A stretch of DNA of 64,000 nucleotides from Bacillota bacterium (lineage in GTDB: Bacteria > Bacillota > Sulfobacillia > JAJZYS01 > JAJYTV01), in the NCBI GenBank assembly GCA_021799275.1, contig JAJZAT010000003.1, positions 9,708 through 73,707 on the forward strand, written 5' to 3'. Position numbers and translations under genes: made by a program. The notes beneath the pieces are model-generated. The model searched no databases. It had not been told where the DNA came from and saw only the letters and a list, made by a program, of their open reading frames with translations. How positions within the stretch are numbered: the stretch's first letter is position 1; each line of letters begins with the position of its first letter. This document shows, piece by piece, positions 1,459 through 22,809 of this stretch.

Positions 1459-2400
1459 TTGCGCGTCCTCGTGACCGGCGGGGCCGGCTTCATCGGCTCC
1501 AACACGGTAGATTACCTCGTGGCGCACGGCCATGAGGTCTCGGTCGTGGACAACCTCGTCACCGGTTTCCGCGAACAGGTACATCCGAAGGCGCACTTTC
1601 ACGAGGTCGACGTGACCGACGCGGAGAGGCTGGAGCGGGTCTTCGCCGCCGAGCGGCCCGAAGCGGTCATCCACCTCGCCGCGCAGATGGACGTGCGCGT
1701 CTCGACGCGCCGGCCGGCCTACGACGCCCAGGTGAACATCCTTGGCAGCCTCAACGTGATCACCTGCGCGGTGGGCGCCGGCACGCGCAAGATCGTCTAC
1801 GCGTCGAGCGGCGGCGCGATCTACGGCGAGCCGGACTACCTGCCCGTGCGGGAGGACCATCCGATCCGGCCGCTCTCGCAATACGGCGTGACGAAGCACA
1901 CCGTCGAGCACTACCTCTTCCTCTACGCCCATCTGCACGGTCTGCGCTACACCGCCCTGCGCTACGCGAACGTCTTCGGGCCGAGGCAGAACCCCGCCGG
2001 CGAGGCTGGCGTCGTGGCCATCTTCGGCCGCAGCATGCTCCTCGCGGAGCCGTGCCGCATCTTCGGCGACGGCGAGCAGACGCGGGACTACGTGTACGTG
2101 GGCGACGTCGTCGCAGCCAACGCGATGGCCCTCGGCGCGGGCGACAACGAGTCGGTCCACATCGGCACCGGCGTCGAGACCAGCGTCAACGAGCTGCACC
2201 GGGCGCTCTCCGAGATCTGCGGCAGCCGGCTCCCGGCCAGGTACGAGCCGGAGCGCCCGGGCGAGGTGCAGCGGATCTCGCTCGATCCCGCCCTGGCCGC
2301 CGAACGTCTCGGTTGGGCGCCAAAGGTGCCCATGAGCGAAGGACTCGAGCGCACGGTCGGATTCCTGAGGGAGCGGCAGGCGGCGGGCAGGCTCGCCTGA
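1459..2400 (+). CDS. NAD-dependent epimerase/dehydratase, UDP-hexose (Glc/GlcNAc) 4-epimerase GalE-like; candidate PelX-type epimerase
   Basis: N-terminal Rossmann motif VLVTGGAGFIGSN and the SDR catalytic motif (YAS...Y..TK).; ~313 aa as expected for GalE; TTG start preceded by GGAGG 7 nt upstream. Confidence 0.85.
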   Translation: MRVLVTGGAGFIGSNTVDYLVAHGHEVSVVDNLVTGFREQVHPKAHFHEVDVTDAERLERVFAAERPEAVIHLAAQMDVRVSTRRPAYDAQVNILGSLNVITCAVGAGTRKIVYASSGGAIYGEPDYLPVREDHPIRPLSQYGVTKHTVEHYLFLYAHLHGLRYTALRYANVFGPRQNPAGEAGVVAIFGRSMLLAEPCRIFGDGEQTRDYVYVGDVVAANAMALGAGDNESVHIGTGVETSVNELHRALSEICGSRLPARYEPERPGEVQRISLDPALAAERLGWAPKVPMSEGLERTVGFLRERQAAGRLA

Positions 2401-2419
2401 GGTCTTGTGGTCGGGCAAG

Positions 2420-2459
2420 GAACGAGGCGGGAAGACGTCGATGTCTTCCCGCCTCGTTC
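2420..2459. terminator. bidirectional intrinsic-terminator-like hairpin between convergent genes
   Basis: Perfect 17-bp inverted repeat GAACGAGGCGGGAAGAC / GTCTTCCCGCCTCGTTC with a 6-nt loop. It lies between the stop of the epimerase (2400, +) and the stop of the minus-strand gene at 2478. Confidence 0.6.
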
Positions 2460-2477
2460 TAGGTGCGGTACCAGGGG

Positions 2478-3266
2478 TCAGGGGGCAAGTTGCGCCGGGA
2501 ATCCGGCCACCGTCGCCACGCCAGACCAGAGACCCTGGTCCATGAGGTGGGACCCCGCAGGACCAAGCACACTGCCGCAGGCGGGATCCACCGTGAAGGT
2601 CCAGTTGCCCGCCTTGGCGATGAAGCGCACCGTCGCGGCCGCACCGAAATCGGCAAGGCAGCCGTGGGCGCCGCGCGTGTCCACGGGCAGCGCGTTCACG
2701 ACCGCGAGCAGGTGCCGCCAGGCGTCGGGAGTCCGCAGGGTGCGCGTGACCCAGGGCGAACTCGCCGACTGCCTCGCCCGCACCGTAACCTCCTCGAGCG
2801 TTGCCGGCACGATGCTCGCCTTCGGGCGGGCCGGTGCCACGATCAGCTCGCGGGCCAGCGAATAGACGCTCTTCCTGCCGTCCCGCTCCACCGTGAGCAG
2901 TACGGTGTCGTTCATGCCCGCTCCGCGCGTGAAGGACCAGTCCCAACTGGAGGTGCCCGAGCGGTTGCCCGCTGTGCCGTAGCCCTGCAGGCGGTAGCCG
3001 AGGTGCCTCAGGCGCGGCAGGTAGTAGGCGTAGAGCTCCTGTGGCGTCAGCGGCGCGACGTAGCTGCGGCTCGTCGTGTGGAGATACGGCGACGACACCG
3101 TCTCGTACGGCATCACCGCCACGCTGCTCGGCGCAGAGTTCTGCGGCGGGGCCACCAGAAAACCCGCCATCCTTTGAGGGGCGCCCGCCCTCGCCGCACC
3201 GAGCCAGGCTCCCCCGGCGAGGAGCACCATCGAGGCCAGGAACACGAGGTAGCGCCGACCTCGCAT
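2478..3266 (-). CDS. hypothetical secreted protein (signal peptide, ~262 aa)
   Basis: Start MRGRRYLVFLASMVLLAGGAWLGAARA has the n/h/c layout of a signal peptide. GGAGG-like SD upstream. The 506-aa tracker ORF is an N-terminal over-extension. No recognisable family. Confidence 0.5.
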   Translation of the reverse strand: MRGRRYLVFLASMVLLAGGAWLGAARAGAPQRMAGFLVAPPQNSAPSSVAVMPYETVSSPYLHTTSRSYVAPLTPQELYAYYLPRLRHLGYRLQGYGTAGNRSGTSSWDWSFTRGAGMNDTVLLTVERDGRKSVYSLARELIVAPARPKASIVPATLEEVTVRARQSASSPWVTRTLRTPDAWRHLLAVVNALPVDTRGAHGCLADFGAAATVRFIAKAGNWTFTVDPACGSVLGPAGSHLMDQGLWSGVATVAGFPAQLAP

Positions 3267-3394
3267 TGTCTCGTCCACCTTTCCTGCGAGCGGCGGGCCG
3301 CCGCGCCATGTTCTCGCCAGGAGAACACCTCGCCGCTGCGGCCGTGACGACGTGCCACCGGTCGTGCCCTGCCCGTCGTGTCTCCCCGCGAGAC

Positions 3395-4120
3395 TCAGCG
3401 CGCCGCGGTTGCCCCGAGCAGCACCACCGCCACAGATGCGAGCGCGATGAAGGGGCCGAAGGCGAAGGCGTCCCTGCCGGTCGCGCGACGCGTCAGCAGC
3501 AGACCAGCCGCATAGAGACCGCCGCAGAGGACCGCGAGGAAGAGCGTCGCGAGGCCCCGTTGCCAGCCGAGCATCAGGCCCACGACCCCAAGATACTTGA
3601 CGTCTCCGAGGCCGAATCCGCCTCGGCCGATCCATGCGATCAGGAATCCGATGCCGAGCAGCAGCAAGGCGCCTAGCGCGCCGGCCAGGTAGGCCGCGCC
3701 GCCCAGCGGCAAGAGCGCCAGGAGGCCCAGCACGGCGGCGACGAGCAGAAGGCGGTTCGGGATGATGCGTCGGCGCATGTCCACGGCGGCCACCGCAAGC
3801 CCCAGCCAAAGCACCAGGAGGTCGAGCGGAAGGGCCAGGCTGAAGCGGAGCCCGAAGAGCAGACCGCTGCCGCACACCGCGCCGAGCTCGAACCAGAGTT
3901 CCGAGCGGCGTGGCAGTGCGCCACACTGCCCGCAGCGGCCCCTGGCCGCGTGCCGCACGAGCGGCAGCTGTACCAGGGCCCCGAGTCGCCCGCCGCAATG
4001 CCGGCAGCGGGAGATCGCGGCGGCTCCGCCCTCGGCGAGGACTTCCACCAGCGGAATCAGGATGGCCGCGGCGGCATAGCCCACGAGCAGACCGAGACCC
4101 ACGGCCAGAAGTCCCTGCAA
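3395..4120 (-). CDS. prepilin peptidase (type IV leader peptidase, A24 family)
   Basis: N-terminal Zn-binding CxxC...CxxC (CRHCGG...CGQCG), a polytopic membrane domain and the catalytic-region motif GGFGLGDVKYLGVVG.; TTG start with GGAGGAGG SD 9 nt upstream. Sits directly downstream of the pelF-like gene. Confidence 0.8.
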   Translation of the reverse strand: MQGLLAVGLGLLVGYAAAAILIPLVEVLAEGGAAAISRCRHCGGRLGALVQLPLVRHAARGRCGQCGALPRRSELWFELGAVCGSGLLFGLRFSLALPLDLLVLWLGLAVAAVDMRRRIIPNRLLLVAAVLGLLALLPLGGAAYLAGALGALLLLGIGFLIAWIGRGGFGLGDVKYLGVVGLMLGWQRGLATLFLAVLCGGLYAAGLLLTRRATGRDAFAFGPFIALASVAVVLLGATAAR

Positions 4121-4156
4121 ACCGCCGGCCTCCTCCGCCTGACGTTCCGCGCTGGG

Positions 4157-5890: not shown

Positions 5891-5943
5891 GACCCGCACT
5901 TTCCTGGGCACTATCCATCCCCCTTTGTCGCACATCCGAAACC

Positions 5944-6047: not shown

Positions 6048-6081
6048 TGCCGAGGGACAATCGCCAGGGGAGTCACCCGAG

Positions 6082-7689
6082 ATGAGCATCGCCAGGGGAG
6101 GTCGGGCCACCCGCACGTCCCGGACGGGTGAGGCCCGCGAGCGCCTCCTTCGCCAGGTGGTCGAGGCCAACGGCGACCTGCAGGATGTCATGGACGTGGC
6201 CGCCACGATCGAGTCGCTCGGCTGGAGCGACCGTCGCGTGGAGGACGTGTTCGGCATGCCCAGCGTGTTCGATCTCGCCGAGGACATCTACGCCGACTTC
6301 CTCGCCAGCGTCCGTACGGACCCGATACCGCCGCGCCACGATATGCGCTGGTACCATCTGCTGCGTCTCATCGCGGCCGACTTCTTCCACGGTCTTCTCT
6401 TCGCCCTGCCGATGGTCGTCTCGATCGCTGCGATGGTGATGCTGCACATCAGCATCTGGTCCTACCAGTACTACTCCGTCGCGCAGGCCACGGCGCTCGG
6501 CATCGCGACGTTCCTGAGTTTCGTCGTGACGGGCGGATTCACGCAGGCCATGGCCACGATCTATTACGTCCTGGTCGGCCTGCAGGAGGGGGACCTCGTC
6601 GAGCGCTCCCTCTACCAGATCATGCGCTGGGGCTTCGGCGCCGCCGTCGTGATCGCGATCGCCATCGTCGTCGCGGACTCGGTGTTCCCGATGTTCCCCT
6701 TCTCCCTGGCCTTCTTCATGGTCGTCTACATGATCATGCTGTCGCTGCTTTGGCTCGCGTACGCCAGCCTTTACGTTCTGCGGCGAGAGTACATGCTGAC
6801 CCTGCTGACGGTTGGCTCCATCCTGATCGCCTACTTCATGTGGCGCTTCGGACACAACGTCATCCTGGCGCAGGCGATGGCCATGGCCGCGGCGACCGGC
6901 GGGGCCGTGCTCTCCTGGCTCGTCATCTTCCGCCGCCAGACCCGCAAGTGGCAACACATCGGCCGCATCGTCAAGACCAGGACCTCGCAGCTCGCCTATG
7001 CCTCGGCGAGCTACTTCTTCTACGGCATCCTCTACTTCAGCTTTGTGTTCTCGGACCGCCTGGTCGCCTGGACCACGGCCACGTCGTTCCTGCCGTACAG
7101 CATCTGGTTCCGCGGGGAGTACGAGCTCGGCATGGACTGGGCGCTCTTCGCCCTCATCCTGCCGCTCGGCGCGACCGAGGCGTTCGTCGGCTATGTCATC
7201 CGCTGGCTGATGGTCGCGCAGCACCGCGTCACGGAGCGGAACGTGCAGAACCTGGCTGCCGCGATGCGCGCCGTCTACCTGCGCTGCGTGGCCGGCTTCG
7301 TCGGCGTCGCGGCGATCGGCATGGTCATGGTGCGCATCGGCCTCGCGATCGCCCGCCAGTACCCGATCCTGCGCAACGCGATCCCGATCCACGGCGTCGA
7401 GCCGTTCGTCTTCTCCTGGGCGAGTTTCGCCTACGTCGTCCTGGCGCTCGCGCTCTTCAACGTCCTCCTGATGTTCAGCCTCGCCTACCCCCAGCTGGCC
7501 CTCAGGTCGCTGCTCATCTCCCTTGCGGCCGACATCACGGTCGGCATCATCGCCACGCGTATTCTCGGCGCGTACCAGTTCGCCGTGGTCGGCCTCATCG
7601 CCGGCGTCATCTGCCTGGTCGTGCTGACCACGGTGGACGTGCTCCGGCTGCTGCCGCGCGTCGACTTCATGCTCTACCGCATGGCCTGA
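6082..7689 (+). CDS. 12-TM integral membrane protein, PelG-like / MOP-type putative exopolysaccharide exporter
   Basis: Twelve or so hydrophobic helices follow an ~90-aa cytoplasmic N-terminus. The N-terminal pattern W-Y-H-L-L-R-L-I-A-A-D-F-F-H-G-L-L-F-A is reminiscent of the PelG N-terminus. Divergently adjacent to pelF. ATG 6082 with GGGGAG SD. The function call is tentative. Confidence 0.55.
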   Translation: MSIARGGRATRTSRTGEARERLLRQVVEANGDLQDVMDVAATIESLGWSDRRVEDVFGMPSVFDLAEDIYADFLASVRTDPIPPRHDMRWYHLLRLIAADFFHGLLFALPMVVSIAAMVMLHISIWSYQYYSVAQATALGIATFLSFVVTGGFTQAMATIYYVLVGLQEGDLVERSLYQIMRWGFGAAVVIAIAIVVADSVFPMFPFSLAFFMVVYMIMLSLLWLAYASLYVLRREYMLTLLTVGSILIAYFMWRFGHNVILAQAMAMAAATGGAVLSWLVIFRRQTRKWQHIGRIVKTRTSQLAYASASYFFYGILYFSFVFSDRLVAWTTATSFLPYSIWFRGEYELGMDWALFALILPLGATEAFVGYVIRWLMVAQHRVTERNVQNLAAAMRAVYLRCVAGFVGVAAIGMVMVRIGLAIARQYPILRNAIPIHGVEPFVFSWASFAYVVLALALFNVLLMFSLAYPQLALRSLLISLAADITVGIIATRILGAYQFAVVGLIAGVICLVVLTTVDVLRLLPRVDFMLYRMA

Positions 7690-7700
7690 GGAGGTCGCGG

Positions 7701-9656
7701 ATGCCGCTCCCCCTTTCCATCGAACTCGATACCATGCTGAGGCTCGTGATCTGCGGACTCGTCCTCTTTTATCTCTGGCCGCGCTACGTCTTCGCCGTCG
7801 ACGGCGACGTCGCCCGCGCGGACCGCCTTGCCGGCTACGCCGCCCGCATGCTGCTGCTCGTGGCCGGAGCCGCATTGGGGCTCGCGGCGGTGCATGCCTT
7901 CAGCTGGTTCACCCTGGCGGTCCTGGTCTTCGCACCGCGCCTTCTGAAGGTGCAACCGGACACCGGCCAGGGCCGCGGCGTAGGGGTCGGGTCACGTCTT
8001 CTGGGCGATCTCGACCGGCTCGGCAGCCTGCCCCGCCGCGCGTGGGCCTTCCTGCGCAAGGGCCTGCAAGGGCCCTGGCGGGTCACGTGGAGGCCGTCCG
8101 TCTACGTTCTCGCCGGTGGTTTCCTGCTCGCTGTCCTGCTCGGCGTCTCCGCCTACCTGCGTCTCGCCCCTGCCTTCGCCCATGCGGGCATCGCGTTTTC
8201 CGACTCGAATGTGGTGCTCTACTGGGTGCAGGCGATCGGACAGCAGATCCTGTTTCCGAACGGCATCTACCCGGAGGGCTTCCACGCCGCCGTCGCTGGG
8301 CTCATGCGCCTCAGCGTCGCGAGCCCGATCGCGACCATCAAGTTCATCGGCCCGATCATCGGCGTCGCCATGGTCGGTTCGGTGGGATTCGCCGCCTACC
8401 GCCTGACCGGGCGTTTCGCTCCGGCCGCGGTCGCCATGCTGGTCTACGGCACGCTGCCGCACCTGCTGCCCTACATCTATCTGCGCCAGGCCGGCACCGA
8501 CTCGCAGGAGTTCGGCAACATGCTCGTGCTGCCGACGCTCTGGTTCGTCTACGCCTCCTGGGTGAAGCAGGGGAATTGGTATCGCGGCACCGCCATCGCC
8601 CTCTTGGCGATGGCGGCGCTCACCCATCCGATCGTCTCCCTCAACGCAGGTCTCGCGGCCGTCGCGGCGACAGTGGCCGCCTGGCTCACGGTGGGCGTGC
8701 GCTGGCAGACGCTGGGGTGGTGGTTGCGTTGGCTGCCAGTGGCGTTGGTATTGGCCGTGGCGCCGCTCGTCGTAGCCCTGGCGATCGGCATCCCCCTCAA
8801 CACCGCCAGCGTGGGATTCGCCGCGCAGACCACGGCCGCCGCAGCTCCGCCGATCACCACGCTGGACAAGCTCGCGCTGCTCTCGGCTTGCATGCTCCTG
8901 CTGGTCCGCGCCGTGCGCCTTGTCGCCAGGAGGGCTGAACGCGCAGATCTCGGTATGCCGCTAGCCGCCCTCCTGACCCTCGTCGCGGCCCTCGCCATCC
9001 AGGAGGCCGCGACGTTCGGCATCCACCTGCTGGCGCTGCAATCCCGTTCCGGCGAATTCGTCGCGCTCGCCGTTGCGCTCTGCCTCGGTATGAGCGTCTC
9101 GGCCGTGCAGGAACTGCTCGAGCTTGTCCGCCCCGCCTTCGGGCGCTGGGCGGGTCTGCTGCTTGCGGCGGGTGTGGTCGCGGGCGCCTGGGCCCAGAGC
9201 GCACCCCAGCCGTTCAACCCCTTTCCGACCTACCGCTGGCTGCCCGACGACTTCGTCGTGGCGTACGCCCGCATCGCGGCCACCCAGCCGAGCGGCAGCT
9301 GGCTCGCGGTATCGGACGACAGCGGCTTCGACTACGCGTACGGCCAGGGTCTCTTCATGACCGCCGCCGACTTTGCGCAACACGTCGGTACCAAGGGCCC
9401 TTGGCCGACCTACCACCACCCAGGCCAGGCGACCAGGCCCCTTGCCACACGTCATCTCTTCATCTTCGTCGACCGCCGCATCGTCGTGGCGCCGTCCTAC
9501 AGCACACCCACGGTGCCTCGCCGGCAGGCGGTGCAGAAGCTGATCCGCGGCTGGGTGAACCGCTGGGAGCGGACGCACGGCCCACTCCACGTCTACTTCC
9601 GTGGGCCCGACCTGACCGTTTACGAGTTGACAGCCCCGGGCTGGGGGTCGTCCTGA
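7701..9656 (+). CDS. large polytopic membrane protein, paralog A (651 aa): N-terminal TM bundle + C-terminal extracytoplasmic domain; uncharacterised (GT-C-like?)
   Basis: ATG 7701 with GGAGG SD, 12 nt after the stop of the upstream gene. ~60% identical to paralog B. Conserved N-terminus MPLPLxIELxT..RL..G.V.YLWPRYVF, first-loop motif FSDSNVVLYWVQ, C-terminal WLPDDFVVAY...SDDSGFDYAYGQG...LHVYFRGPDLTVYEL. Confidence 0.75.
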   Translation: MPLPLSIELDTMLRLVICGLVLFYLWPRYVFAVDGDVARADRLAGYAARMLLLVAGAALGLAAVHAFSWFTLAVLVFAPRLLKVQPDTGQGRGVGVGSRLLGDLDRLGSLPRRAWAFLRKGLQGPWRVTWRPSVYVLAGGFLLAVLLGVSAYLRLAPAFAHAGIAFSDSNVVLYWVQAIGQQILFPNGIYPEGFHAAVAGLMRLSVASPIATIKFIGPIIGVAMVGSVGFAAYRLTGRFAPAAVAMLVYGTLPHLLPYIYLRQAGTDSQEFGNMLVLPTLWFVYASWVKQGNWYRGTAIALLAMAALTHPIVSLNAGLAAVAATVAAWLTVGVRWQTLGWWLRWLPVALVLAVAPLVVALAIGIPLNTASVGFAAQTTAAAAPPITTLDKLALLSACMLLLVRAVRLVARRAERADLGMPLAALLTLVAALAIQEAATFGIHLLALQSRSGEFVALAVALCLGMSVSAVQELLELVRPAFGRWAGLLLAAGVVAGAWAQSAPQPFNPFPTYRWLPDDFVVAYARIAATQPSGSWLAVSDDSGFDYAYGQGLFMTAADFAQHVGTKGPWPTYHHPGQATRPLATRHLFIFVDRRIVVAPSYSTPTVPRRQAVQKLIRGWVNRWERTHGPLHVYFRGPDLTVYELTAPGWGSS

Positions 9657-13634: not shown

Positions 13635-14506
13635 CCGGCCGGAACCAGCCTATCGCCGCTGAACGCCCAGGTCTCGAGCGGCTGCCGGGCAAGGTCCGGA
13701 ACCTGGGGGCCCATCGGCACGAACGTCACCTGGCGCAGGAGGTCCCCGAGCAGCCGCCGCAGGTGGCCGCGGCCGAAGCCCATGCTGAAACGGGCCACGG
13801 CCCCGGCGGAGGCCGGTAGCGACCAGCCCGCCGGGGCCACTTCCCACGGATGGGCGTAGAGTACCCGCGGCGCGCCGCCTCTGAGCGCGGCGACCACCAG
13901 GGCCGACGGCAGGAGACGCCAGTAGATGCCCCCCGCGACCGGCACGCGCAGGCCGAACCAGGACTGCACCGCCGGCGGCAGCTCCAGGATCGAGCCGGAA
14001 CCGGCCTGGGCCTGCAGTCGGTAGGGTGACGCAGGGGCGCCGGCCACGCCGTAGAGCGGCGTGCGCAGCGGAAAGACGCTCGAGTCGTAGCGAAAGCCGA
14101 GATCGGAGAGGGCCTCGACCGCCCAGGCGCTGCGCGGGGTGAGCGACCAGGTGGCCGCCCGGTAGCCCTGGACGCCGGTGCCCGCAAGGTCCTCGAGGAT
14201 CGCCTTGGCGTCCTTGACCTCGCGGCGGAAGCGTTCCTCCCCGATCTGCCAGAGGAGGTCGTGCGTAAGGCCGTGGCAGGCTACCTCGTGTCCGGCCGCC
14301 GCGATCGCCCGGACGCTTTCGGGCAGTTCGCGGGCCAGGCCGCCGAGCACGAAGAACGTCGCCCTCGCGCCATGCGCGGCCAGGAGCCCCAAGACCGCGT
14401 CGAGCTCCCGGCGCGCGAAGTCGGGCTGTGGGGCGACGGGCGCCGTTGCCAGCGTGGCGTCGTACCAGTGCTCGACATCGATCGAGAGCATGTGTGGCCC
14501 TACCAT
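13628..14506 (-). CDS. polysaccharide deacetylase family protein (CE4/PuuE-like fold with C-terminal DUF3473)
   Basis: N-terminus MLSIDVEHWYD resembles the TIGR03006/DUF3473 deacetylase subfamily (SVDVEDYF). Has the His pair ACHGLTHD. The 3' end overlaps paralog C convergently by 7 nt. Start M125 of the tracker ORF, with an AGGTGA SD. Confidence 0.7.
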   Translation of the reverse strand: MVGPHMLSIDVEHWYDATLATAPVAPQPDFARRELDAVLGLLAAHGARATFFVLGGLARELPESVRAIAAAGHEVACHGLTHDLLWQIGEERFRREVKDAKAILEDLAGTGVQGYRAATWSLTPRSAWAVEALSDLGFRYDSSVFPLRTPLYGVAGAPASPYRLQAQAGSGSILELPPAVQSWFGLRVPVAGGIYWRLLPSALVVAALRGGAPRVLYAHPWEVAPAGWSLPASAGAVARFSMGFGRGHLRRLLGDLLRQVTFVPMGPQVPDLARQPLETWAFSGDRLVPAGH

Positions 14507-15630
14507 CGCATCACCTGCCGCCATGTCCCGATATCGAAGAGGTGGCCCAGCACGGCGAGCAGGAAGCCCCCGACGGGCCCGAGGTCGCCCGGGTCGACGA
14601 TGTCGTCCACCAGCCGCTCGCCGGGCAGGCGCCTCGGCGCACCCTTGGCGAGACCACGCAGCGGGTGGCGCAGGAGATGCAGGAGGTCCGACGGCAGAGA
14701 CCAGCGGCAAAGCACTGCGGTATCGTAGGCTGCCGGCCCGCTCACGGTCTGTCCGAGCGCAAGTTCCGCCCAAAGCCGGGGGAAGTCCACCCCCGCCGCC
14801 ACCGCGAGCCCCAGGGACGCCCAGGGCCTCGGGTTGATCTCCAGAAGCTGTGGTGAGCCGTCGGGTGCTTCGAGCCATTCCACCTCGGCGAGTCCCGTCC
14901 AGCCGATCGGCTGCAGCAGCTGGCGCGACAGCCCGACAAGATCGTCCCGCACCACGCTGCGCTGCAGGGTGCTCGTGCCGTGCTCCCCTGGGAACCAGCG
15001 CAGCTCCTCCTGGCAGAACGTGGCCCTAAGACTCCCATCCCTGGCGTAAAGGAGGCCCACGTCGAACTTGCGTCCGCGCGGCAGGCGCCGCTGCACGAGA
15101 TGCCCTCGGAGGTCCGCGGGCAGGGCTTCGAGATGCTGCGGCAGATAGCGCACGCCGCGTCCCCCGGAACCCACGCGGGGCCGCAGCACGACTTCCCCCC
15201 CGAGCATGGCCCTGGCGTCGGCTAAGTCCCCTTCCGTCCCGACCGGAACGCTCTCGGGATGGGGTACGCCGGCCCGGACGGCGAGTTCCATCGTGCGCCA
15301 CTTGTCGCGGCCAATCTCGAACTGCTCCGCCGTCGGCAGGAGGCTCTTCGCCGTCAGCGCGTCGCCGCAGGCGATCGCGGCCGCGGTGGAGAGGTCGTCC
15401 ATCGGCAGCACGAGATCCACCTCTGCCGCGACGGCGAGAAGCCAGTCCTGGAATGCGGCACTCCCCGGTCGCGGGCTCCTCAGGGCCCGGCCGGCGTATC
15501 GGGACCACCGTGCGAGGCTGAACGTCGTATCGTCGGCGACCCACGGCTCATAGCCCGCCCGGCCCAGAGAGCGTGCGGCCACGAGCGTCTTGCGCTGCAG
15601 TCCATCGGTGAGGAGCACCCTCACCTTCAT
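14500..15630 (-). CDS. ATP-grasp domain protein (carboxylate-amine ligase-like)
   Basis: ATP-grasp central and C-terminal motifs (VLRPRVGSGGRGV..., LLEINPRP). Overlaps the deacetylase start by 7 nt and the GT2 gene by 4 nt, so the three are translationally coupled. Confidence 0.65.
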   Translation of the reverse strand: MKVRVLLTDGLQRKTLVAARSLGRAGYEPWVADDTTFSLARWSRYAGRALRSPRPGSAAFQDWLLAVAAEVDLVLPMDDLSTAAAIACGDALTAKSLLPTAEQFEIGRDKWRTMELAVRAGVPHPESVPVGTEGDLADARAMLGGEVVLRPRVGSGGRGVRYLPQHLEALPADLRGHLVQRRLPRGRKFDVGLLYARDGSLRATFCQEELRWFPGEHGTSTLQRSVVRDDLVGLSRQLLQPIGWTGLAEVEWLEAPDGSPQLLEINPRPWASLGLAVAAGVDFPRLWAELALGQTVSGPAAYDTAVLCRWSLPSDLLHLLRHPLRGLAKGAPRRLPGERLVDDIVDPGDLGPVGGFLLAVLGHLFDIGTWRQVMRW

Positions 15631-16406
15631 ACAGGGGCGGCCCGGCGCATGATCTCAGGCAGGCAGGTCACCTCGTAGGAATCCTCCGGCGGCCTGCGCC
15701 GGCGCAGGCCGAACGTGACGCGCAGGAAGGCGATCAGGCCCATGGACATGTTGTTCAACCCGTCCCGGATCCGAGCCCCCTTGCGGTAGAACGCCACCCT
15801 CGTCGGCATGGTGTTGTCCATCTTCCAGCCGCGCCGAACCGGCAGGATGCCCAGTTCTTGCGCGCAGCCGTAATTTCGTCCGGTGAAGTACGGCATGATG
15901 TCAGCGATGACCTTGAGGCGCATGAGGCGGAAGCCGCACTCGATGTCCCGGAACATGTAACCCGTCAAGAGGCTGGCCCAGAGCGAGAGGCCCCAGTTGC
16001 CGATGCGCTTGCTGAGCGGGTAACCGGAGAGGTCCCTTTGGCCGAGCAGCACGTCCGCGCCACGCTCCTCGATGCTCCGTACGGCGGGCCCCGCCTCTTC
16101 CGGGATATGCTGGCCGTCGGCGTCCATCGTGATGACGATGTCCTCGGCCCCCAGAACGCCGAGGCGCATCAGGCCGAGCAGATAGTCGAATCCGGTCCGC
16201 AAGGCGCCAGACATGCCGCGGTTCGCCGGATGCGTCAGGAGCGCCACCTTGCCATGCGTCTGGCACCAGGTGCGCACCAATCTGCTCGAGGTGTCGCGCG
16301 AACCGTCGTCGACAACGACCAGGAGATCCGCGAACGGCTCCGCCCGGTGAAGCACGTCCACGATGGTGCGCTCCTCGTTGTAGGTAGGGATCAGAAACAC
16401 GACCAT
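15627..16406 (-). CDS. glycosyltransferase family 2 (Dpm1/polyprenyl-phosphate sugar transferase-like)
   Basis: VVFLIPTYNEE..I..VL, VVVDDGSRD and DADGQH motifs typical of GT2 DXD enzymes. Confidence 0.8.
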   Translation of the reverse strand: MVVFLIPTYNEERTIVDVLHRAEPFADLLVVVDDGSRDTSSRLVRTWCQTHGKVALLTHPANRGMSGALRTGFDYLLGLMRLGVLGAEDIVITMDADGQHIPEEAGPAVRSIEERGADVLLGQRDLSGYPLSKRIGNWGLSLWASLLTGYMFRDIECGFRLMRLKVIADIMPYFTGRNYGCAQELGILPVRRGWKMDNTMPTRVAFYRKGARIRDGLNNMSMGLIAFLRVTFGLRRRRPPEDSYEVTCLPEIMRRAAPV

Positions 16407-16488: not shown

Positions 16489-17286
16489 TCAGCGCCCCAG
16501 CGCGACGCGGCCATCCACCGTGCGGACGCCGCGGGCGTAGTCGAGGGGCGCGGCATAGGAAAGAAAGCCGTAGCGCTTCGACAGGTCGTCCAGTACGCGC
16601 AAGCGCGGGGCCGCCGCCGCATCGTCCGGGATCTCGCTCAAAAGCATCGGCGTGATGCCTTCCTGGCGCACCACCTTGGCGATCTGCTCCAGAACCATCC
16701 GCAGCCAAGGCCCTGTCGTCTCGTCCGGATCGAAGCTGCCCTCCCAGCAGACGCCGTCGATCAGCTGGGCGACGAGCGGTAGCAGCAGGAAAATGCCATT
16801 GTTCTGCAGCAGCAGCCGGTCGCCAACGGCCTGGCGCACGCCGCGCACGAGATCGGCCGCGGCGGGCAGCAGCCAGCCTGACCTGTCCTGGACGAGCTGA
16901 TCCTCGACGTCGCCGAGGTTGTCGAGAAAGACGCCGTCCCAACCCTCGCCGACCAGGCGGCTCGCCTCCCGCAGCACGTGCTCGCGCCAGGGGCGCGCGC
17001 GAGGGTCGACGACGTAGGTGTCGAACTGCTCGCGCCGCCAGGGACCCTCTCCCGCGCGCAGCAGCTGGCGTTCTGCGACGCCGATGCGGTTCAAGGTCGC
17101 CCGCGTCGCCTCCATGGCGGAGAGATAGGCGATGCAGCGCACGCCATGGCTTCTAAGGGCCTGGACATCCTCGCGCCGCCACCCGGCGGGCTCCAGGATG
17201 GCGATGTCGTACGACGAGATCTCCGGCAGCGGACCGTATCCGTAATACACGACAAACGTGCGGCCTCGCAGTCGGGGTGCGCGCAC
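16489..17286 (-). CDS. GH114-like glycoside hydrolase (TIM barrel; PelA-hydrolase/Ega3-like endo-alpha-1,4-polygalactosaminidase family)
   Basis: Motifs VVYYG, CIAYLSAME and DGVFLDNLGDV resemble the GH114 conserved blocks (vicYfSaG..., DGvFLDnvD). No signal peptide is evident, so the call is moderate. Confidence 0.55.
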   Translation of the reverse strand: MRAPRLRGRTFVVYYGYGPLPEISSYDIAILEPAGWRREDVQALRSHGVRCIAYLSAMEATRATLNRIGVAERQLLRAGEGPWRREQFDTYVVDPRARPWREHVLREASRLVGEGWDGVFLDNLGDVEDQLVQDRSGWLLPAAADLVRGVRQAVGDRLLLQNNGIFLLLPLVAQLIDGVCWEGSFDPDETTGPWLRMVLEQIAKVVRQEGITPMLLSEIPDDAAAAPRLRVLDDLSKRYGFLSYAAPLDYARGVRTVDGRVALGR

Positions 17287-17313
17287 ATCGTGCCCTCCTT
17301 TGACGTCTCCTGG

Positions 17314-18924
17314 CTAGGCGCCCTGTTCGATGGGCAGGATGCCGCGATCGGCGAAGATCTCGATCAAGGCCCCCACCATATCGGGATCGAGCTGGCTGCC
17401 GGCGATGAGCTGCATCTCCCTGAGCGCCCTGGCGGGCGGCAGAGCCGCGCGGTACGTGCGGGCGGAGGTGCGCGCGACGTAGACCTCGGCGCACGCCACG
17501 ATGCGGGCGAAGAGATCGATGTCGGTGCCCGCGAGGCCGTCCGGGTAGCCCTGGCCGTCCCAGCGCTCGTGGTGATGGCGCACCGCGAGCACGACGCCTG
17601 CCGGCACGACGTCCCCGGGCAGCCCCGACAGCAGGTTCGCGCCGACGACGGGATGCTGCTGGATGACCGTGCGGCTCTCGGCGCTCAGGCCGCCCCTGGT
17701 CTTCGGCAGGTCTAGGGCGACCGACACCATGCCGACGTCATGCAGCCGTCCGGCGAGGTGGAGCGCCTCGACCTGCGACGACTCGAGCCTCAGCCGCCTG
17801 CCGATGTCGCGCGCCACCTCCGCGACGCGCTTCGAATGGTCGTGGCTGAGGTCCTCCGCCGCGTCGAGCAGATCGGCCGCCGACAGCAGCGACTGAAGGT
17901 AGCTCTGGCCGAGACTGAACGTGTAGAGATGGCTGCCGATCGTACGCCGCAGGCTCTGCGAAAGGGAGGTCAGCACGAAGGTCACGCGCTCGCTCAGCTC
18001 GGGGCGGATCGCGAGGCCGTAACCCACCGCGCCGCCTCGCGTGTCCTCGCGCACGGACACGAGCGCGAAACCCTGGTAGCCGAGCTGGGCGACGCCGTCC
18101 GGCAGGTCCGGCGCGACCCAGAGCCCCGCCCGCAGACTGGGCAGACGCCGCGGGTCGAGGGCGAAAAACAGCTGTTCCCCGCCACCCATCCGCCAGATGT
18201 CCTCGACGACATCGTCATGCCAGGCGACGCAGTAGCCGGCCCCCGCCTCGATCGCCTCGCCGCCGAGGCGCGCGACCAGGCCAAGGAGCTTGTCCGACTG
18301 CAACGTGAACTCCGACGCCAGCTGCTTCGTGGTGCTCTCCACGGCGACGCGCTCGCCTTCCGCGGTCGTGTCGTCGAGCGCGAGCAGGACCTGCAGCATC
18401 GGCTCAAGCCGAGCGCCGTAGGAAAGGAGGAGCTTGCGCTCGGGCTCCGCCACGTGCTGGCGGCGCGCCAGCGCTGCGCGCAACAGGACGCGCGGCCCCA
18501 CGCCGAGCGACAGGTACGGGTCACCCTGCGGCCCATCCTCCTGGCAGGTCAGGCCGGCGCGGCCAGGCGGCAGTTCGAGCGGCGCCTGCCGGATCGGCGC
18601 ACCGGCGACCAGTCCGGCGTAGTTGATGCCTACCTGCGGCGTGCCTGTCTCCGCACGGGTCAGGCGCAACTGCAGCGGCGCGCCTTCGGCCGGCGCGACA
18701 TAGGCGTAGTAGCCGTCGGCGGGCAGGAGGTCCGCCAGCCCTACAAGCGCGTAGAGAAGGATTTCCGCCACGTCGTAGGGCGGTGCCACCTTGGCGCGCA
18801 GTGCGTCCCACACCTCGTCCACGGTGGCCCTGCGCCCGCGAGGTCGGCTGAAGAGGCTTGCGCCGGCGAGCGCGGCATAGGAAAGCCACTGGGCGTGCAA
18901 CAGTCCATCAACTCCAACGCTCAA
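17314..18924 (-). CDS. HD-GYP domain c-di-GMP phosphodiesterase with ~330-aa N-terminal uncharacterised sensory domain
   Basis: HD motif (LSHDHSKRVA, HDVG) and the canonical HHERWDGQGYP signature. ATGA overlap with the upstream membrane-protein gene. Confidence 0.8.
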   Translation of the reverse strand: MSVGVDGLLHAQWLSYAALAGASLFSRPRGRRATVDEVWDALRAKVAPPYDVAEILLYALVGLADLLPADGYYAYVAPAEGAPLQLRLTRAETGTPQVGINYAGLVAGAPIRQAPLELPPGRAGLTCQEDGPQGDPYLSLGVGPRVLLRAALARRQHVAEPERKLLLSYGARLEPMLQVLLALDDTTAEGERVAVESTTKQLASEFTLQSDKLLGLVARLGGEAIEAGAGYCVAWHDDVVEDIWRMGGGEQLFFALDPRRLPSLRAGLWVAPDLPDGVAQLGYQGFALVSVREDTRGGAVGYGLAIRPELSERVTFVLTSLSQSLRRTIGSHLYTFSLGQSYLQSLLSAADLLDAAEDLSHDHSKRVAEVARDIGRRLRLESSQVEALHLAGRLHDVGMVSVALDLPKTRGGLSAESRTVIQQHPVVGANLLSGLPGDVVPAGVVLAVRHHHERWDGQGYPDGLAGTDIDLFARIVACAEVYVARTSARTYRAALPPARALREMQLIAGSQLDPDMVGALIEIFADRGILPIEQGA

Positions 18925-20120
18925 TTCGCCAAGGCCCCCGACGATTCCCTACCTTGGCGGCCGGATGCGGCGGAGCGCAGGCCGAGGGCAATAACCGCGC
19001 CGGCGCCGACCAGCTGGGCCAGAACGTAGCCGAGGATCAGCGAGTCGGGGCCGCCCGCCAAGGTGAGGCTCCATGCCACCCAGGCAACGCAGGTGGCCAG
19101 GATCGGCCACCAGTTGTGCAGCGAGCGCTGCGCGTCGGCGCCGCTCCAGAGATAGCTGGCGGCAAGGGCGCAGGTGCCGAGGAAATAGAGCGCCAGGACC
19201 CAGCCCGGCTCCCTGACGCCCATCAGCCGCATGGCGAACTCGCCGATCGCGAAGGCGATCATCACGCTGACGACCGCGATGATCCCGATGGCGAGACTGC
19301 CCTCGCTGCGTCGCGAGCGGCCCCAGCCCTCGTCACCGACCGCCATCAGCACCAGGGGCTGGGCTAGGTAGAAGGGAGCCTTCCCGAGCAGGGCGATCAC
19401 CGCGAAGCCCGCCGCGCGCGCCGCACCGAGATGCAGCGTCGCCGCCAGCACGTCGACGGACAGCCAGGCGGTCACCGCGAGCGCGACCCAGCCGGACGCC
19501 CAGGGCGTCGCCTTGATCGGGCGGATCGCCGCCTGATCTCGGGTCCTGTACGGCAGCAAGACCCCGACGGCGCCGAGCACAAGGAAGCTCAGCACCTGGA
19601 TCCAGAGTACGGCAAGGCCGCCGCCCGACCGGTGTCCCACCGCGAGGATGCCGACAAAGCGGCCGACGTTCGGCAGCATGTTGACGACCGCCGACCCGAC
19701 GAACGACGCGCGTCCGATCAGCACGCCCGTCGCCACGGCCGGCATGTAGCTCGAGAGCGGCACGAGCAGCGCGACCGGCAGCACCCATGTACCGGGAAAG
19801 CGGCCGGCGAACAGGAGCATCGCCATGCCGCTCAAGAGACCGGCAACGAGAAACGCCACCTGGACGAAGGGCAGGTGGCGGCGCCACTTCGGTGACAGGC
19901 CGGCCCACGTCGCCACGGGCAGGCTGATGAGCGCCGCGGGCAGGCCGATGGTCGATCCGGCGCCCAAGGCCGCCAGAACCTGCGCCAGGACCTGCGGTCC
20001 GTAGAAGATGTCGATCAGCAGGTTGAAGCCGTACGAGACGACGCCGGACAGCAGCGATACGGCGAAGATGATCAGCGTGGTGCGGCTCACGATCGGACGC
20101 GATGCGGTGCCATGCCTCAC
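18921..20120 (-). CDS. polytopic membrane protein (~12 TM, 399 aa), possibly Wzx/MOP-like polysaccharide flippase or polymerase
   Basis: Uniformly hydrophobic with ≥10 predicted helices. Embedded in the EPS operon and translationally coupled on both sides. The function is inferred from context only. Confidence 0.5.
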   Translation of the reverse strand: MRHGTASRPIVSRTTLIIFAVSLLSGVVSYGFNLLIDIFYGPQVLAQVLAALGAGSTIGLPAALISLPVATWAGLSPKWRRHLPFVQVAFLVAGLLSGMAMLLFAGRFPGTWVLPVALLVPLSSYMPAVATGVLIGRASFVGSAVVNMLPNVGRFVGILAVGHRSGGGLAVLWIQVLSFLVLGAVGVLLPYRTRDQAAIRPIKATPWASGWVALAVTAWLSVDVLAATLHLGAARAAGFAVIALLGKAPFYLAQPLVLMAVGDEGWGRSRRSEGSLAIGIIAVVSVMIAFAIGEFAMRLMGVREPGWVLALYFLGTCALAASYLWSGADAQRSLHNWWPILATCVAWVAWSLTLAGGPDSLILGYVLAQLVGAGAVIALGLRSAASGRQGRESSGALAN

Positions 20121-22252
20121 TGGCCGTCCTCCGGCAGGGTCATGTAGACGATCATCTCCGGCAAGAGCCCCATGGCCTCCACCTCGGCGACCAGCTCGGG
20201 CGTGATGCGGGTGCCCTGGGCGGCGACGAGACGGCCCTCCTGGCCCACGAGGTCGCGCCCGACGACCTTGCCGGCGATGAATGCCAGGATGTTCAGCCCC
20301 GATGCTCCCGCCACCACCTTGGGTTCGGCGGCGGCCGCGGCGGGCCGCTGCCTTGGACGCGACGGAGGGGTTTGCGGCCTTGGCGCCTGCGGTCTCGCCG
20401 GCTCGGTCCTAGGCGTCTGTGGCCCACGCGGGGGTTGCCCCACCTGCAGCGGCGCAGACCCTGCGTCGCCGCTCTCGCCCGGCAGCTGCCAAGCGGGCCG
20501 CGGAAGCTCCTCCGGCCAGAGCGCCTCAGCGACCGTCTCAGCCTTCCCCGCGGCCGGCGCTTCCTCGGAATGCGGCTCAAGACTCGTCTTCGCTTGGTTC
20601 ACGGGCGGCTGCTCCTCACGCGCGACCGATGGGGGTGGTGCCAGGGGCAGATCTCCGCCGCCTCCCGGATGCGCTGCCGGTTGGCCCTGTACGGCCATCC
20701 CCGGGCTGTCGCCCGCCGGACGGGAACTGGCTGCAACGGACTCCTCCGGCGCCGTGCCGTCCTCGGGGCCGATCTCGCCAGGAACTGAACCTGAGGCGGT
20801 CGGCTCAGGCGTCGCCTCGGCGGCGTCGTGGCCCGCACGGTCGAGGCCGGGCTCTTCAGCCGCATGGGCGGAGGACAGCGGCGCGGCCTGCCCGTCCTCG
20901 GAGCTCGCGGCACAGTCCGGAGCGATCGCCAAAGGCGGCGCTTCGGGCGCCTCCGGCTCCTGCGACGTGGGGGGCTCCGAAAACCCAGCCGCGAAGGGCA
21001 GGTCGTCCGCCTGGGGCTCGGCCAGCGGCGCATCCCGCAGATCGCCAGCCTCGTGCGAATCTTCGGCCTGCGATGGGCCATCGGGCTCGTCCTGCGGCTG
21101 GGGGAGTCCGGCGGTGGCAGGCATGGGCGGCTGGTCGGCCGTCTCGACAGCCTGGGGCTCCTCAGCCGGCGCGTCCCCAGCCGGCGCGGAGGTCCCCGGA
21201 AGCGCAGGATCCACCGCTTCGTAGTTGTTCTCTGCGCCTGACTCCGGGGGCTGGCTTCCCTCTGCCTGGGGCGGCACCACCCGCAGGATCTCGCCACGCG
21301 GCGCGTCCCCTGGCGCATTGCTCGCGGGGAGGCTGCCCTCCGCATCGGGCAGGTCGGCCCACTCCGCCGCCGCGGTCTCGTCCGCAGCGTTCCCAGGCAG
21401 GATCTCCTTCTCGTCATGCGTCTGGGACTTCGGCGGCAGCGCAACCGAAAACAGCACCCGGGTAGACTCCTCAGGTACCTCCTCGACGGCGAGCAGGCGA
21501 TACTTGTCGCGCAAGAGCACCATGCCCTGGCGCAAAGCCACCACGTCGCCTGCCGGGATCACCCCGGACCCTTCCTCGCTCTCCGCCACAAACCCCAGCA
21601 CCCGCGGCGGCGGTCCGCTCACCACCACGCCAGTCAGGTAGCCGAACGGGGCACCTCCCCGTACCTGCAGCCGGACGGCGCGCTCGGGCAGCAGGAACAG
21701 GGTGCGCTCGCCCGAGAGCCGCCGAACGGGTAGGTCCCCGGGCGGCTGCGCGAGCAGCGCAGCAGCGACGTCGGCGAATTCGGTCGAGGTCCCGAGGGCG
21801 TCGTCGATGGCCCCCCCCACCACCCGTTCGATTCCCGCGGCCAGCCTGCGCAGTTCCTGCTCCGCGACGGAGATGGCCCGGTCGACCTCCGGCAGGAACC
21901 CCTCGAGCCGCGCGCGTTCCTGCTTGTGCAAAGTTTCAAGATGGGAAACTTCCTCGCGCACGCCGGTGTCTATGACCGCAGCGTTCCCGCGGGCCAGTTC
22001 GAGCTGGTGGGACAGGCGCTCGCGATCGAGGCGCAGGCGCCGCAAGAGATCCTCAAGCGCGTCCCGCCGCGCCAGGGTACGAATGATGCGCTCGCGCTGG
22101 TCCGCCTCGACCACCGCGAAGGCCTCGCTCGCCCCCTGCTGCTCCGCCTCCATGCGCGTAGCCAGTTCGAGCACGTCGGCGCGGTTAAAACCAAACAGGC
22201 CCAGCGGCAGCCGCTGGACCCTGAACCGTGGTCGAGAACCCCTTGACGCCAC
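20117..22252 (-). CDS. DivIVA domain-containing protein with ~450-aa acidic Pro/Ala/Glu-rich disordered linker and conserved C-terminal domain
   Basis: N-terminus FRVQRLPLGLFGFNRADVLELATRMEAE resembles the DivIVA N-terminal domain (F.....RGY...EV..FL), followed by coiled-coil. The central region is low-complexity (PEAPEAPP, APAGDAPAEEP...). The C-terminal ~70 aa are conserved-looking. Confidence 0.6.
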   Translation of the reverse strand: MASRGSRPRFRVQRLPLGLFGFNRADVLELATRMEAEQQGASEAFAVVEADQRERIIRTLARRDALEDLLRRLRLDRERLSHQLELARGNAAVIDTGVREEVSHLETLHKQERARLEGFLPEVDRAISVAEQELRRLAAGIERVVGGAIDDALGTSTEFADVAAALLAQPPGDLPVRRLSGERTLFLLPERAVRLQVRGGAPFGYLTGVVVSGPPPRVLGFVAESEEGSGVIPAGDVVALRQGMVLLRDKYRLLAVEEVPEESTRVLFSVALPPKSQTHDEKEILPGNAADETAAAEWADLPDAEGSLPASNAPGDAPRGEILRVVPPQAEGSQPPESGAENNYEAVDPALPGTSAPAGDAPAEEPQAVETADQPPMPATAGLPQPQDEPDGPSQAEDSHEAGDLRDAPLAEPQADDLPFAAGFSEPPTSQEPEAPEAPPLAIAPDCAASSEDGQAAPLSSAHAAEEPGLDRAGHDAAEATPEPTASGSVPGEIGPEDGTAPEESVAASSRPAGDSPGMAVQGQPAAHPGGGGDLPLAPPPSVAREEQPPVNQAKTSLEPHSEEAPAAGKAETVAEALWPEELPRPAWQLPGESGDAGSAPLQVGQPPRGPQTPRTEPARPQAPRPQTPPSRPRQRPAAAAAEPKVVAGASGLNILAFIAGKVVGRDLVGQEGRLVAAQGTRITPELVAEVEAMGLLPEMIVYMTLPEDGQ

Positions 22253-22254
22253 GC

Positions 22255-22809
22255 CTAAGCCCCTGCCTTCTCCTGACGTGTCGCCTCTTCCCCGGTCTGT
22301 TCGGGCAAAGGCGCCGTCGCCGGCGCTGCCTCACGTTCCGCCTGCCCCGGTTCCTCCGCGACAGGCAAGGTCTCGATCTGCGTCAACGCGCGCCGCACCG
22401 CGGCAGCCACGTCGTCCCGCAGGACGTGGAGCATCTGCCGCCGATGCGCGAGCGCAAGTTCCCGGCGCGCGATCTCGCCAAGGAGCGCCGCCTCCTCTTC
22501 ACCGAAGGCGGCCTTGGCGCTTTGGAGCATCTGCATGCCGCGCGCGCCGAGTTCGTCGAGAAGAGCCAGTAGGATCTGCCGCTGCTCTTGCTCGGCGGCA
22601 ACGAGCGCCTCCGCGTCGCGCAGCGCCTGCGCGGCCGCGTTGAACTGGTTCGACAGCTCCGTCAGTTGCCGCTCCCGTGCCTCCTGCGCCGCCAGAGCCT
22701 CACGTTCGAGCGTCTCGAACAAGGCGAACGTGGGACGCCTGCGGTAGCCTATAAGAGCCCTCCGCAACGCAAGTTCCACGTTTCCAACACCTCTTCGCTG
22801 ACGCTTCAT
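22255..22809 (-). CDS. hypothetical coiled-coil protein (184 aa)
   Basis: Start MKRQRRGVGNVELALRRAL, with heptad-like E/A/L/R/Q-rich sequence. The tracker ORF is over-extended into an AT-richer promoter region. Immediately upstream of the DivIVA-domain gene. Confidence 0.45.
   Translation of the reverse strand: MKRQRRGVGNVELALRRALIGYRRRPTFALFETLEREALAAQEARERQLTELSNQFNAAAQALRDAEALVAAEQEQRQILLALLDELGARGMQMLQSAKAAFGEEEAALLGEIARRELALAHRRQMLHVLRDDVAAAVRRALTQIETLPVAEEPGQAEREAAPATAPLPEQTGEEATRQEKAGA

Follow-up and report, generated by a model that had tools for sequence, protein, structure and literature searches.

A PelF/PelG-type locus coupled to a new family of GT-C glycosyltransferases and conserved across many Bacillota

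The DNA stretch analysed in this study (contig JAJZAT010000003.1; 64 kb, ~69% GC, and hereafter called the window) belongs to a metagenome-assembled genome (MAG) of a high-GC member of the Bacillota and harbors a Pel-like locus that extends from 1459 to ~22929. Its homologues point to Clostridia/Bacillota and not, as the GC content might suggest, to an actinobacterium. In this locus the glycosyltransferase PelF and a PelG-like membrane protein are accompanied by three large membrane proteins (M1, M2, and M3), a family 2 glycosyltransferase (GT2), a deacetylase, an ATP-grasp ligase, and several putative regulatory or structural proteins (Table 1). Genes were picked by third-position GC and frame and compared with the gene calls of the identical contig DAIBJB010000079 (GCA_027420435.1), and all genes listed by a previous reading of the same DNA, made without database searches (the sequence-only reading), were present. 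Eight genes of the locus form a convergent minus-strand operon, transcribed in the order small coiled-coil protein, X, polytopic protein, HD-GYP protein, GH114-like hydrolase, GT2, ATP-grasp ligase, and CE4+DUF3473 protein. In line with that reading, which saw no described Pel architecture, the locus has neither the pelABCDEFG nor the pelDEA(DA)FG layout described so far; its gene complement is unconventional relative to the literature, but within a clade that is widespread in Bacillota this layout is the rule. The cluster is genuine and recurs in many Firmicutes, and no description of a PelF-PelG-GT-C architecture was found in the literature searched.

Table 1. Genes of the PelF/PelG-type locus and features flanking it, in window coordinates (aa, amino acids; TM, transmembrane; ORF, open reading frame).
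Feature	Position	Strand	Length and remarks
SLT-domain lytic transglycosylase	227-1384	+	coiled-coil N-terminal region
GalE/PelX-like SDR 4-epimerase	1459-2400	+	313 aa; Pfam Epimerase 2.1e-63
Secreted or single-TM protein	2478-~3260	-	~260 aa
Prepilin (type IV leader) peptidase A24	3395-4120	-	
PelF, GT4 with DUF3492	4157-~5950	-	start between 5890 and 5950; ORF reaches 6076
PelG-like MOP-superfamily exporter or flippase	6082-7689	+	535 aa; divergent from PelF
M1, GT-C-fold glycosyltransferase	7701-9656	+	651 aa; M2 paralogue
M2, GT-C-fold glycosyltransferase	9700-11679	+	659 aa; modelled structure
M3, divergent GT-C-family paralogue	11679-13634	+	651 aa; BLAST to GT-C proteins of relatives
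CE4+DUF3473 de-N-acetylase, predicted cytoplasmic	13628-14491	-	287 aa; Pfam
ATP-grasp ligase	14500-15630	-	376 aa; Pfam
GT2, polyprenyl-phosphate-sugar synthase type	15627-16406	-	259 aa; Glycos_transf_2 2.7e-20
PelA-hydrolase-like (GH166/GH114-like) TIM-barrel protein	16489-17286	-	265 aa; phmmer to PelA
HD-GYP protein	17314-18924	-	~530 aa; HD_5 8.9e-34
Clade-restricted polytopic protein, candidate flippase	18921-20120	-	399 aa; ~10-12 hydrophobic helices
X protein	20117-22252	-	711 aa, acidic/Pro-rich; X-family profile
Small DivIVA-like coiled-coil protein	22255-22809	-	ORF to 22929; likely start Met codon 22809
LexA to glutamine synthetase region	28328-35051		right-hand boundary of locus
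Catabolic island	42360-63067	-	

The three large membrane proteins, first read as an inner-membrane scaffold, turned out to belong together as glycosyltransferases or their relatives. A structure model of M2 adopted the GT-C fold, with AftD, PglB, AftB, DPY19, and PimE among its structural neighbours; M1 is 56% identical to M2, and M3, whose start shares one base with the M2 stop, matches the GT-C proteins of related loci (BLAST 7.6e-53 to the Sulfobacillus copy adjoining PelG). A signature of R157, D171, W178, R265, E273, H312, and R452 (M2 numbering) was common to 89 of 118 family members and is kept by M1. D171 lies in a loop directly behind a TM helix, which is itself preceded by a strongly basic stretch; because of its charge this stretch should be cytoplasmic, so that D171 would sit in an outer loop, and GT-C enzymes carry their catalytic acid in such a loop. 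Based on the fold of M2 and the family signature, M1-M3 are predicted to be enzymes using lipid-linked donors outside the membrane, and not scaffolds; to our knowledge, the GT-C class uses lipid-linked donors only.

Neither M1, M2, nor M3 matched any Pfam (even at E<=10) or NCBIfam model, and essentially no Pfam match was obtained for 35 sampled members of the family, which is new and has no model in either database. An exhaustive profile search among 1.84 billion representative proteins recovered 687 clusters (50% identity), almost all of them ~650 aa long, where a word-indexed search had given 19 homologues. The family showed no conserved WWDYG-like motif in its C-terminal domain, as would mark oligosaccharyltransferase membership, and a reading of the string FDYAYG in M2 as such a motif was dropped, as the positions are not conserved. 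Separately, D171 is missing in at least 17 family members, mostly from Sulfobacillus-type and some clostridial loci, which are candidates for pseudo-enzymes or for a second specificity class.

Conservation was assessed by scanning one genome per species, which yielded 80 loci, nearly all in Bacillota and all collected via the PelG-like gene; gene counts were taken from the 45 loci whose 10-kb flanks were complete. The same gene set was found around homologues in Psychrobacillus lasiicapitis, one Paenibacillus, and two MAGs (Sulfobacillus and Firmicutes), and the 80 loci included Paenibacillus spp., Psychrobacillus, Priestia abyssalis, Ectobacillus, Tumebacillus, and Gorillibacterium, together with Sulfobacillus, Pelotomaculum, Peptococcaceae, Clostridium algoriphilum, Oscillospiraceae, and Dethiobacter. 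Synteny was conserved, with PelF and GT-C genes both present in 45/45 loci, the latter in one (17 loci), two (25), or three copies (3). The GT2 gene followed with 40/45, HD-GYP with 34, the PelA-hydrolase-like gene with 32, ATP-grasp and X with 28 each, CE4 with 27, DUF2304 with 25, a MurJ/MatE-type flippase with 24, the small DivIVA-like protein with 19, and a GalE-like gene (within 10 kb) with 18. Furthermore, a GT-C gene lies immediately 3' of the PelG-like gene in 72 of 74 loci, across both Bacilli and Clostridia. CE4 and ATP-grasp occurred together in 26 of the 29 loci with either gene, and CE4 together with a MOP flippase in 22 loci. Two of the 80 loci (L033 and L036) lie in MAGs labelled Candidatus Udaeobacter (Verrucomicrobiota) and Ignavibacteriales, which points to misbinning or else to horizontal transfer from Bacillota.

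In the Pel core, PelF carries DUF3492 (PF11997, 1.4e-41) and Glycos_transf_1 (9.5e-31) domains, and scored 153 bits against the NCBIfam PelF model NF038011 (cut-off 100), with model positions 2-489 of 489 covered, in full agreement with its first assignment. Its C-terminal tail of ~100 aa is TPR-like, with a weak TPR_9 match (E 0.0036), and PelF measured 579-589 aa in five relatives with listed gene calls. The epimerase, which had been recognized as GalE/PelX-like, scored 189 bits against GalE (TIGR01179), under the cut-off of 262; its best PDB match was the UDP-glucose 4-epimerase 4zrm (4.5e-94), with 6wjb and 6wj9, which we take to be PelX, at ~1e-52. Regarding PelG, the structure model of the window protein showed a MOP fold with 12 TM helices, preceded by a cytoplasmic helical domain of ~90 aa. 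The protein has 141 homologues, essentially all from Bacillota, one of which (Psychrobacillus) is called PelG by NCBI, and it is 95% identical to its counterpart in the closest other genome, a Clostridia bacterium MAG. The Pfam PelG family (PF16933) was matched by 22 of 46 aligned members (best 2e-8), and we conclude that the window protein is probably a divergent PelG-family MOP protein. Its modelled fold would suit a lipid-linked-glycan flippase and a polymer exporter equally. The N-terminal domain (6082-6350) is conserved across the family, with invariant E44, G47, D50, and F63, and might serve PelF, X, or the DivIVA-like protein for docking.

The absence of PelD, PelE, PelB, and PelC, already proposed from the letters, was borne out in the genes scanned. 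No GGDEF or GAF domain, as expected for PelD, was found among ~48 window ORFs scanned, ~10 candidate ORFs beyond 25 kb, outside the locus, being left unscanned, and no PelD was found in the related loci examined. Likewise, no separate TPR membrane protein that could be PelE was detected among the scanned ORFs, where the sole TPR signal was that of the PelF tail.

Around this core, we detected the putative components of a second, lipid-linked branch. The GT2, present as first read, gave its best NCBIfam matches to PpgS (6.5e-15), dolichyl-phosphate hexose transferase, AglJ, and ArnC, all under cut-off, and its best solved relatives were ArnC (5e-7) and DPMS (1.8e-5). Judging from these matches it is a predicted polyprenyl-phosphate-sugar synthase of the ArnC/DPMS/PpgS-like type, which would form an extracytoplasmic module with the GT-C proteins, a link that the sequence-only reading had not seen. 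The deacetylase was confirmed by Polysacc_deac_1 (3.1e-17) and DUF3473 (1.3e-22) matches, scored 197 bits (E 3.4e-58) against the XrtA-system deacetylase TIGR03006 (cut-off 276), and matched ArnD weakly (0.0026). It opens at the catalytic motif, MLSIDVEHWYD, and ~40 orthologues open MxNALTVDVEDWY; no signal peptide or TM helix was found in the window protein or in these orthologues, and the enzyme is therefore predicted to be cytoplasmic. It is the sole deacetylase of the locus, where no extracytoplasmic PelA-type de-N-acetylase was found. The ATP-grasp ligase matched ATPgrasp_Ter (3.4e-9), ATP-grasp_3, a PRK12767-type model (1.3e-14), and PDB entry 2pn1 (5.8e-7).

The hydrolase, first described as GH114-like, fell below the PF03537 (GH114) cut-off (23.3 bits against 27), but it is a homologue of the PelA hydrolase domain (phmmer 8.6e-14 to 5tcb; 2.2e-10 to full-length PelA, 9cgy). 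Aligned with PelA, it keeps the acidic positions of the FLD and WE motifs, which are probably D160 and E218 of PelA, the residues mutated to inactivate the PelA hydrolase (PMC12022489). No export signal or N-terminal hydrophobic segment was found in the window protein or in most of ~40 orthologues. On predicted localisation, both CE4 and hydrolase would act in the cytoplasm; the proposal that they supply the two PelA functions as separate genes was not upheld.

The HD-GYP protein has intact HD and HHExxDGxGYP motifs, and for its N-terminal domain (~330 aa) neither a family nor a solved relative was detected. In the loci L040, L049, L065, and L072 (Psychrobacillus, Priestia, and Paenisporosarcina), the hydrolase gene, at ~18-21.5 kb, encodes in addition an N-terminal TM helix and a module of ~170 aa, for which the homologous part in other loci is the HD-GYP N-terminus (E down to 4e-45); in the stretch fetched for these four, HD-GYP was not detected as a gene of its own. 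Since the hydrolase is fused to the HD-GYP N-terminal module in some Bacilli, the two proteins appear to be tied functionally.

In relatives, the small DivIVA-like protein and X sit between PelF and PelG. X combines a DivIVA-like N-terminus, a coiled coil, an acidic/Pro-rich linker, and a conserved C-terminal motif of ~55 aa, and matched the profile of 38 X-family proteins at 1.2e-43; the small coiled-coil protein matched, at 1.5e-12, a profile built from 22 small proteins encoded after PelF in relatives. For the earlier assignment of a DivIVA-domain protein there are these matches to family profiles but none in Pfam, where neither window protein gave a PF05103 hit or any other match at E<=10; PF05103 was carried by one member of the small-protein family (L008). 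The C-terminal motif of X, YIVGK.AG.DL.D..G.LI..K...IT.E.V.RA...GKLAELIVNM (window 20117-20290), follows a highly variable linker and matches no Pfam family. Finally, the 399-aa polytopic protein matched neither Pfam nor the profile of the MurJ/MatE-type flippases of relatives; it has only 11 homologues, all at least 55% identical, and was present in 1 of the 80 related loci.

In this context, we propose a two-module envelope-glycan system, typical of a Bacillota clade, in which GT-C enzymes would decorate a PelF/PelG polymer on the outer side of the membrane, a reading that we consider to stand an even chance. It is based on folds, family memberships, the absence of signal peptides, and gene co-occurrence and adjacency, from which we infer the substrates, the order of steps, the acceptor, and the role of cyclic di-GMP (c-di-GMP). 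In the first, Pel-type module, the GalE/PelX-like epimerase would supply a UDP-hexosamine that cytoplasmic PelF polymerises, and the 12-TM PelG-like protein would export the chain; the DivIVA-like protein and X would probably organise PelF and, with the PelF tail, may replace PelD and PelE. In the second module, GT2 would load an N-acetylhexosamine onto undecaprenyl phosphate, the cytoplasmic CE4/DUF3473 enzyme would de-N-acetylate the lipid-linked sugar in an ArnD-like manner, and the ATP-grasp ligase would acylate the freed amine again, using a carboxylate that might be an amino acid. A flippase, here perhaps the 399-aa polytopic protein or PelG itself, would then move the product outward, and M1 and M2 would transfer the sugar to the polymer leaving PelG, with M3 being maybe non-catalytic. 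The HD-GYP and cytoplasmic PelA-hydrolase-like proteins could act as a pair in regulation or quality control, in connection with c-di-GMP. The likely acceptor is the polymer as it comes out of PelG, because a GT-C gene directly follows PelG almost everywhere; moreover, the scheme of GT-A, flippase, and GT-C is established for Gram-positive wall polymers (PMC8035078). As for the modified, possibly amino-acid-decorated polymer suggested earlier, a modified amino-sugar product is plausible.

Several observations weigh against the two-module reading. The window PelG-like protein itself, unlike nearly half of its aligned family, had no match to PF16933 even at E<=10, so that its first description as a PelG-like, 12-helix protein stands on fold and family and not on the Pfam model. 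No module-2 flippase was recognisable in the 64-kb window with a profile of the MurJ/MatE types of relatives, nor did a DUF2304 profile find a counterpart anywhere in it; the clade of the window has the 399-aa polytopic protein where relatives have a MurJ-type flippase and DUF2304. Minimal loci of the Sulfobacillus type retain GT2 and GT-C without CE4, ATP-grasp, or flippase, and the deacetylation/acylation branch would therefore be accessory. M3 misses the M1/M2 profile and lacks R157, D171, W178, R265, E273, H312, and R452, retaining GxYPxG, P358, W537, G553, and W620; it may be non-catalytic or altered in specificity. The GT2 lies far under every NCBIfam equivalog cut-off, so that any sugar or lipid specificity given to it is putative, and the model offers no clear role for a PelA-type hydrolase located in the cytoplasm.

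Among the alternatives, a fully lipid-linked pathway survives best, even though we hold it to be unlikely. Here, GT2 would prime undecaprenyl phosphate, PelF would elongate the glycan, the PelG-like protein would be a Wzx-type flippase, and GT-C would act as polymerase or ligase, transferring the whole glycan in one step to an anchor such as peptidoglycan or a protein, in an oligosaccharyltransferase/Aft-like manner. The position of GT-C right after PelG, the lack of a separate flippase in minimal loci, and the presence of oligosaccharyltransferase and WzxE among the structural neighbours all agree with it. However, no initiating phosphoglycosyltransferase of the WecA/WbaP type appeared in the window or in related loci, the GT2 is of the monophosphate-sugar synthase type, and the GT-C C-terminal domain is without the WWDYG-like motif; in addition, one to three GT-C paralogues per locus suit decoration better than a single ligase, and PelF scores above the cut-off of its equivalog model, while descriptions of canonical Pel synthesis include no lipid carrier (PMC13254593). 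The corresponding general claim, that the Pel-type pathway of this clade depends on a lipid carrier, with PelG handing a lipid-linked glycan to the downstream GT-C for polymerisation or for ligation to wall or protein, receives the same low credence from us. If it were true, PelG proteins would generally be flippases and not polymer pores, and the cluster would represent a new class of envelope-glycan assembly, made of PelF, MOP, and GT-C proteins and organised by DivIVA-like proteins.

A further alternative, which we find rather improbable, is that GT2 and GT-C, together with CE4, ATP-grasp, and flippase, add sugar to another acceptor, such as a teichoic acid, secondary wall polysaccharide, S-layer protein, or pilin, and that their link to PelF and PelG is one of co-regulation only. 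In Firmicutes, modules of this kind usually act on teichoic acids and wall polysaccharides (PMC8035078); in the clade of the window, PelF adjoins the genes of a prepilin peptidase and of a secreted protein, and DivIVA-like proteins suggest a wall or division-site context. Against this, GT-C accompanied the PelG-like gene in all 45 loci and directly followed it nearly throughout, bearing in mind that all loci were collected via that gene, and the GT-C family is compact, at 687 clusters. Lastly, the sequence-only reading of a synthase-dependent Pel system, with M1-M3 as a scaffold replacing PelD and PelE and with CE4 and the GH114-like protein as a split extracytoplasmic PelA, draws on the presence of PelF, a PelG-like protein, a PelA GH166 homologue, and a CE4 deacetylase and on the missing PelD and PelE, but it is very improbable and largely refuted by fold and predicted localisation, as M2 adopts the GT-C fold, the polar signature is kept by M1 and by most of the family though not by M3, deacetylase and hydrolase carry no export signal in ~40 orthologues whereas PelA(DA) of Bacillus cereus is anchored and extracellular (PMC13254593), and an ArnC/DPMS-type GT2 is left unexplained.

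Pel is a major biofilm matrix polymer, and according to the two-module reading there should be a matrix or wall polymer of new chemistry, Pel-like with N-acylated amino-sugar branches, which would matter for biofilm control and for the annotation of genes now labelled 'hypothetical'. The clade couples PelG almost invariably to GT-C and a polyprenyl-phosphate-sugar synthase, which bears on the question of a lipid carrier in Pel polymerisation and export, and offers in culturable Paenibacillus, Psychrobacillus, and Priestia a natural system for the genetic dissection of the PelG hand-off. It would also be an example of DivIVA-like scaffolds and HD-GYP proteins replacing PelD and PelE.

Regarding the surroundings of the locus, the SLT-domain lytic transglycosylase just upstream of the epimerase has a weak PcsB coiled-coil match in its N-terminal region, and might open peptidoglycan for polymer passage or have no relation to the locus. 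Downstream of PelF (2478-4120), the prepilin peptidase ORF shares the PelF frame with one stop codon between them, and lies beside a secreted or single-TM protein whose family was not recognised; this pair occurs next to PelF only in the closest MAGs (L010-L012). To the right of ~23 kb, the window holds housekeeping and catabolic genes (SIMPL, LexA, the arginine deiminase pathway, GlnA, an HflX-like GTPase, and an organic-acid catabolism island). The boundary region comprises LexA, arginine deiminase, ornithine carbamoyltransferase, carbamate kinase, and glutamine synthetase; the large catabolic island encodes a GntR/FCD regulator, electron-transfer flavoprotein alpha and beta subunits, two FAD oxidoreductases, an aconitase-family protein, an MFS transporter, DUF6282, two Asp/Glu-racemase-like proteins, TctA/TctC tricarboxylate transport, a phosphoenolpyruvate-mutase/isocitrate-lyase-like protein, and a PrpD/MmgE-like protein. 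An Rfam search found no riboswitch, c-di-GMP type included, and no other RNA within the window, where promoter and terminator scans remained at chance level.

Gram-positive Pel loci have been described as pelDEA(DA)FG joined by accessory genes of the pelA(H), galE, or CotH type (PMC7112168), and the Pel product as a partially deacetylated alpha-1,4-GalNAc/GalN polymer (PMC9135694). With the pelDEA(DA)FG operon of B. cereus ATCC 10987 (PMC7112168, PMC13254593), the window locus shares a DUF3492 GT4 PelF, a MOP-type PelG-like protein, a GalE-like epimerase, a homologue of the PelA hydrolase, an association with c-di-GMP enzymes, and the absence of outer-membrane parts. It differs in lacking PelD (GAF and degenerate GGDEF), PelE, and the extracellular, anchored PelA(DA) (CE26 and CBM114), the latter being a single-pass protein of 610 residues with a modelled docking on PelG (PMC13254593), and its hydrolase has no signal peptide. 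Instead, it has DivIVA-like and X proteins, a TPR-like PelF tail, an N-terminal domain on PelG, a predicted polyprenyl-phosphate-sugar GT2, a predicted cytoplasmic CE4/DUF3473, ATP-grasp, HD-GYP, and, across the clade, one to three GT-C genes after PelG. The CE4+DUF3473 protein is closest to the deacetylase family of XrtA/PEP-CTERM loci (TIGR03006, under cut-off), from which the present locus differs by its Firmicute host and by having no exosortase, PEP-CTERM proteins, or Wzx/Wzy set.

The second module resembles CsbB/GtcA/YfhO and the GacI/GacJ/GacK/GacL system of Streptococcus pyogenes (PMC8035078) in its putative GT-A of the C55-phosphate-sugar synthase type and its polytopic extracytoplasmic GT-C and, in relatives of the window locus, in DUF2304 (the family of GacJ, the GacI partner) and a Wzx/MurJ-type flippase. 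Unlike in those systems, the GT-C has no Pfam model, being neither YfhO nor PMT_2, and is wired to a PelF/PelG core and not to teichoic acid or rhamnan synthesis, with an extra deacetylase and ATP-grasp and no recognisable flippase or DUF2304 gene in the window. The Arn pathway (ArnC-ArnD-ArnE/F-ArnT) offers the same series of a GT2-made polyprenyl-phosphate amino sugar, cytoplasmic deacylation of CE4 type, a flippase, and transfer by a GT-C outside, whereas here sequence matches are far under equivalog cut-offs, the acceptor would not be lipid A, and ATP-grasp and several GT-C paralogues are added. In mycobacteria, PpgS and Rv3779 decorate arabinogalactan with galactosamine (GalN), polyprenyl-phosphate-GalNAc being deacetylated along the way; while the acceptor proposed here is not arabinan, the logic of the proposed second module parallels that of this PpgS/GT-C pathway.

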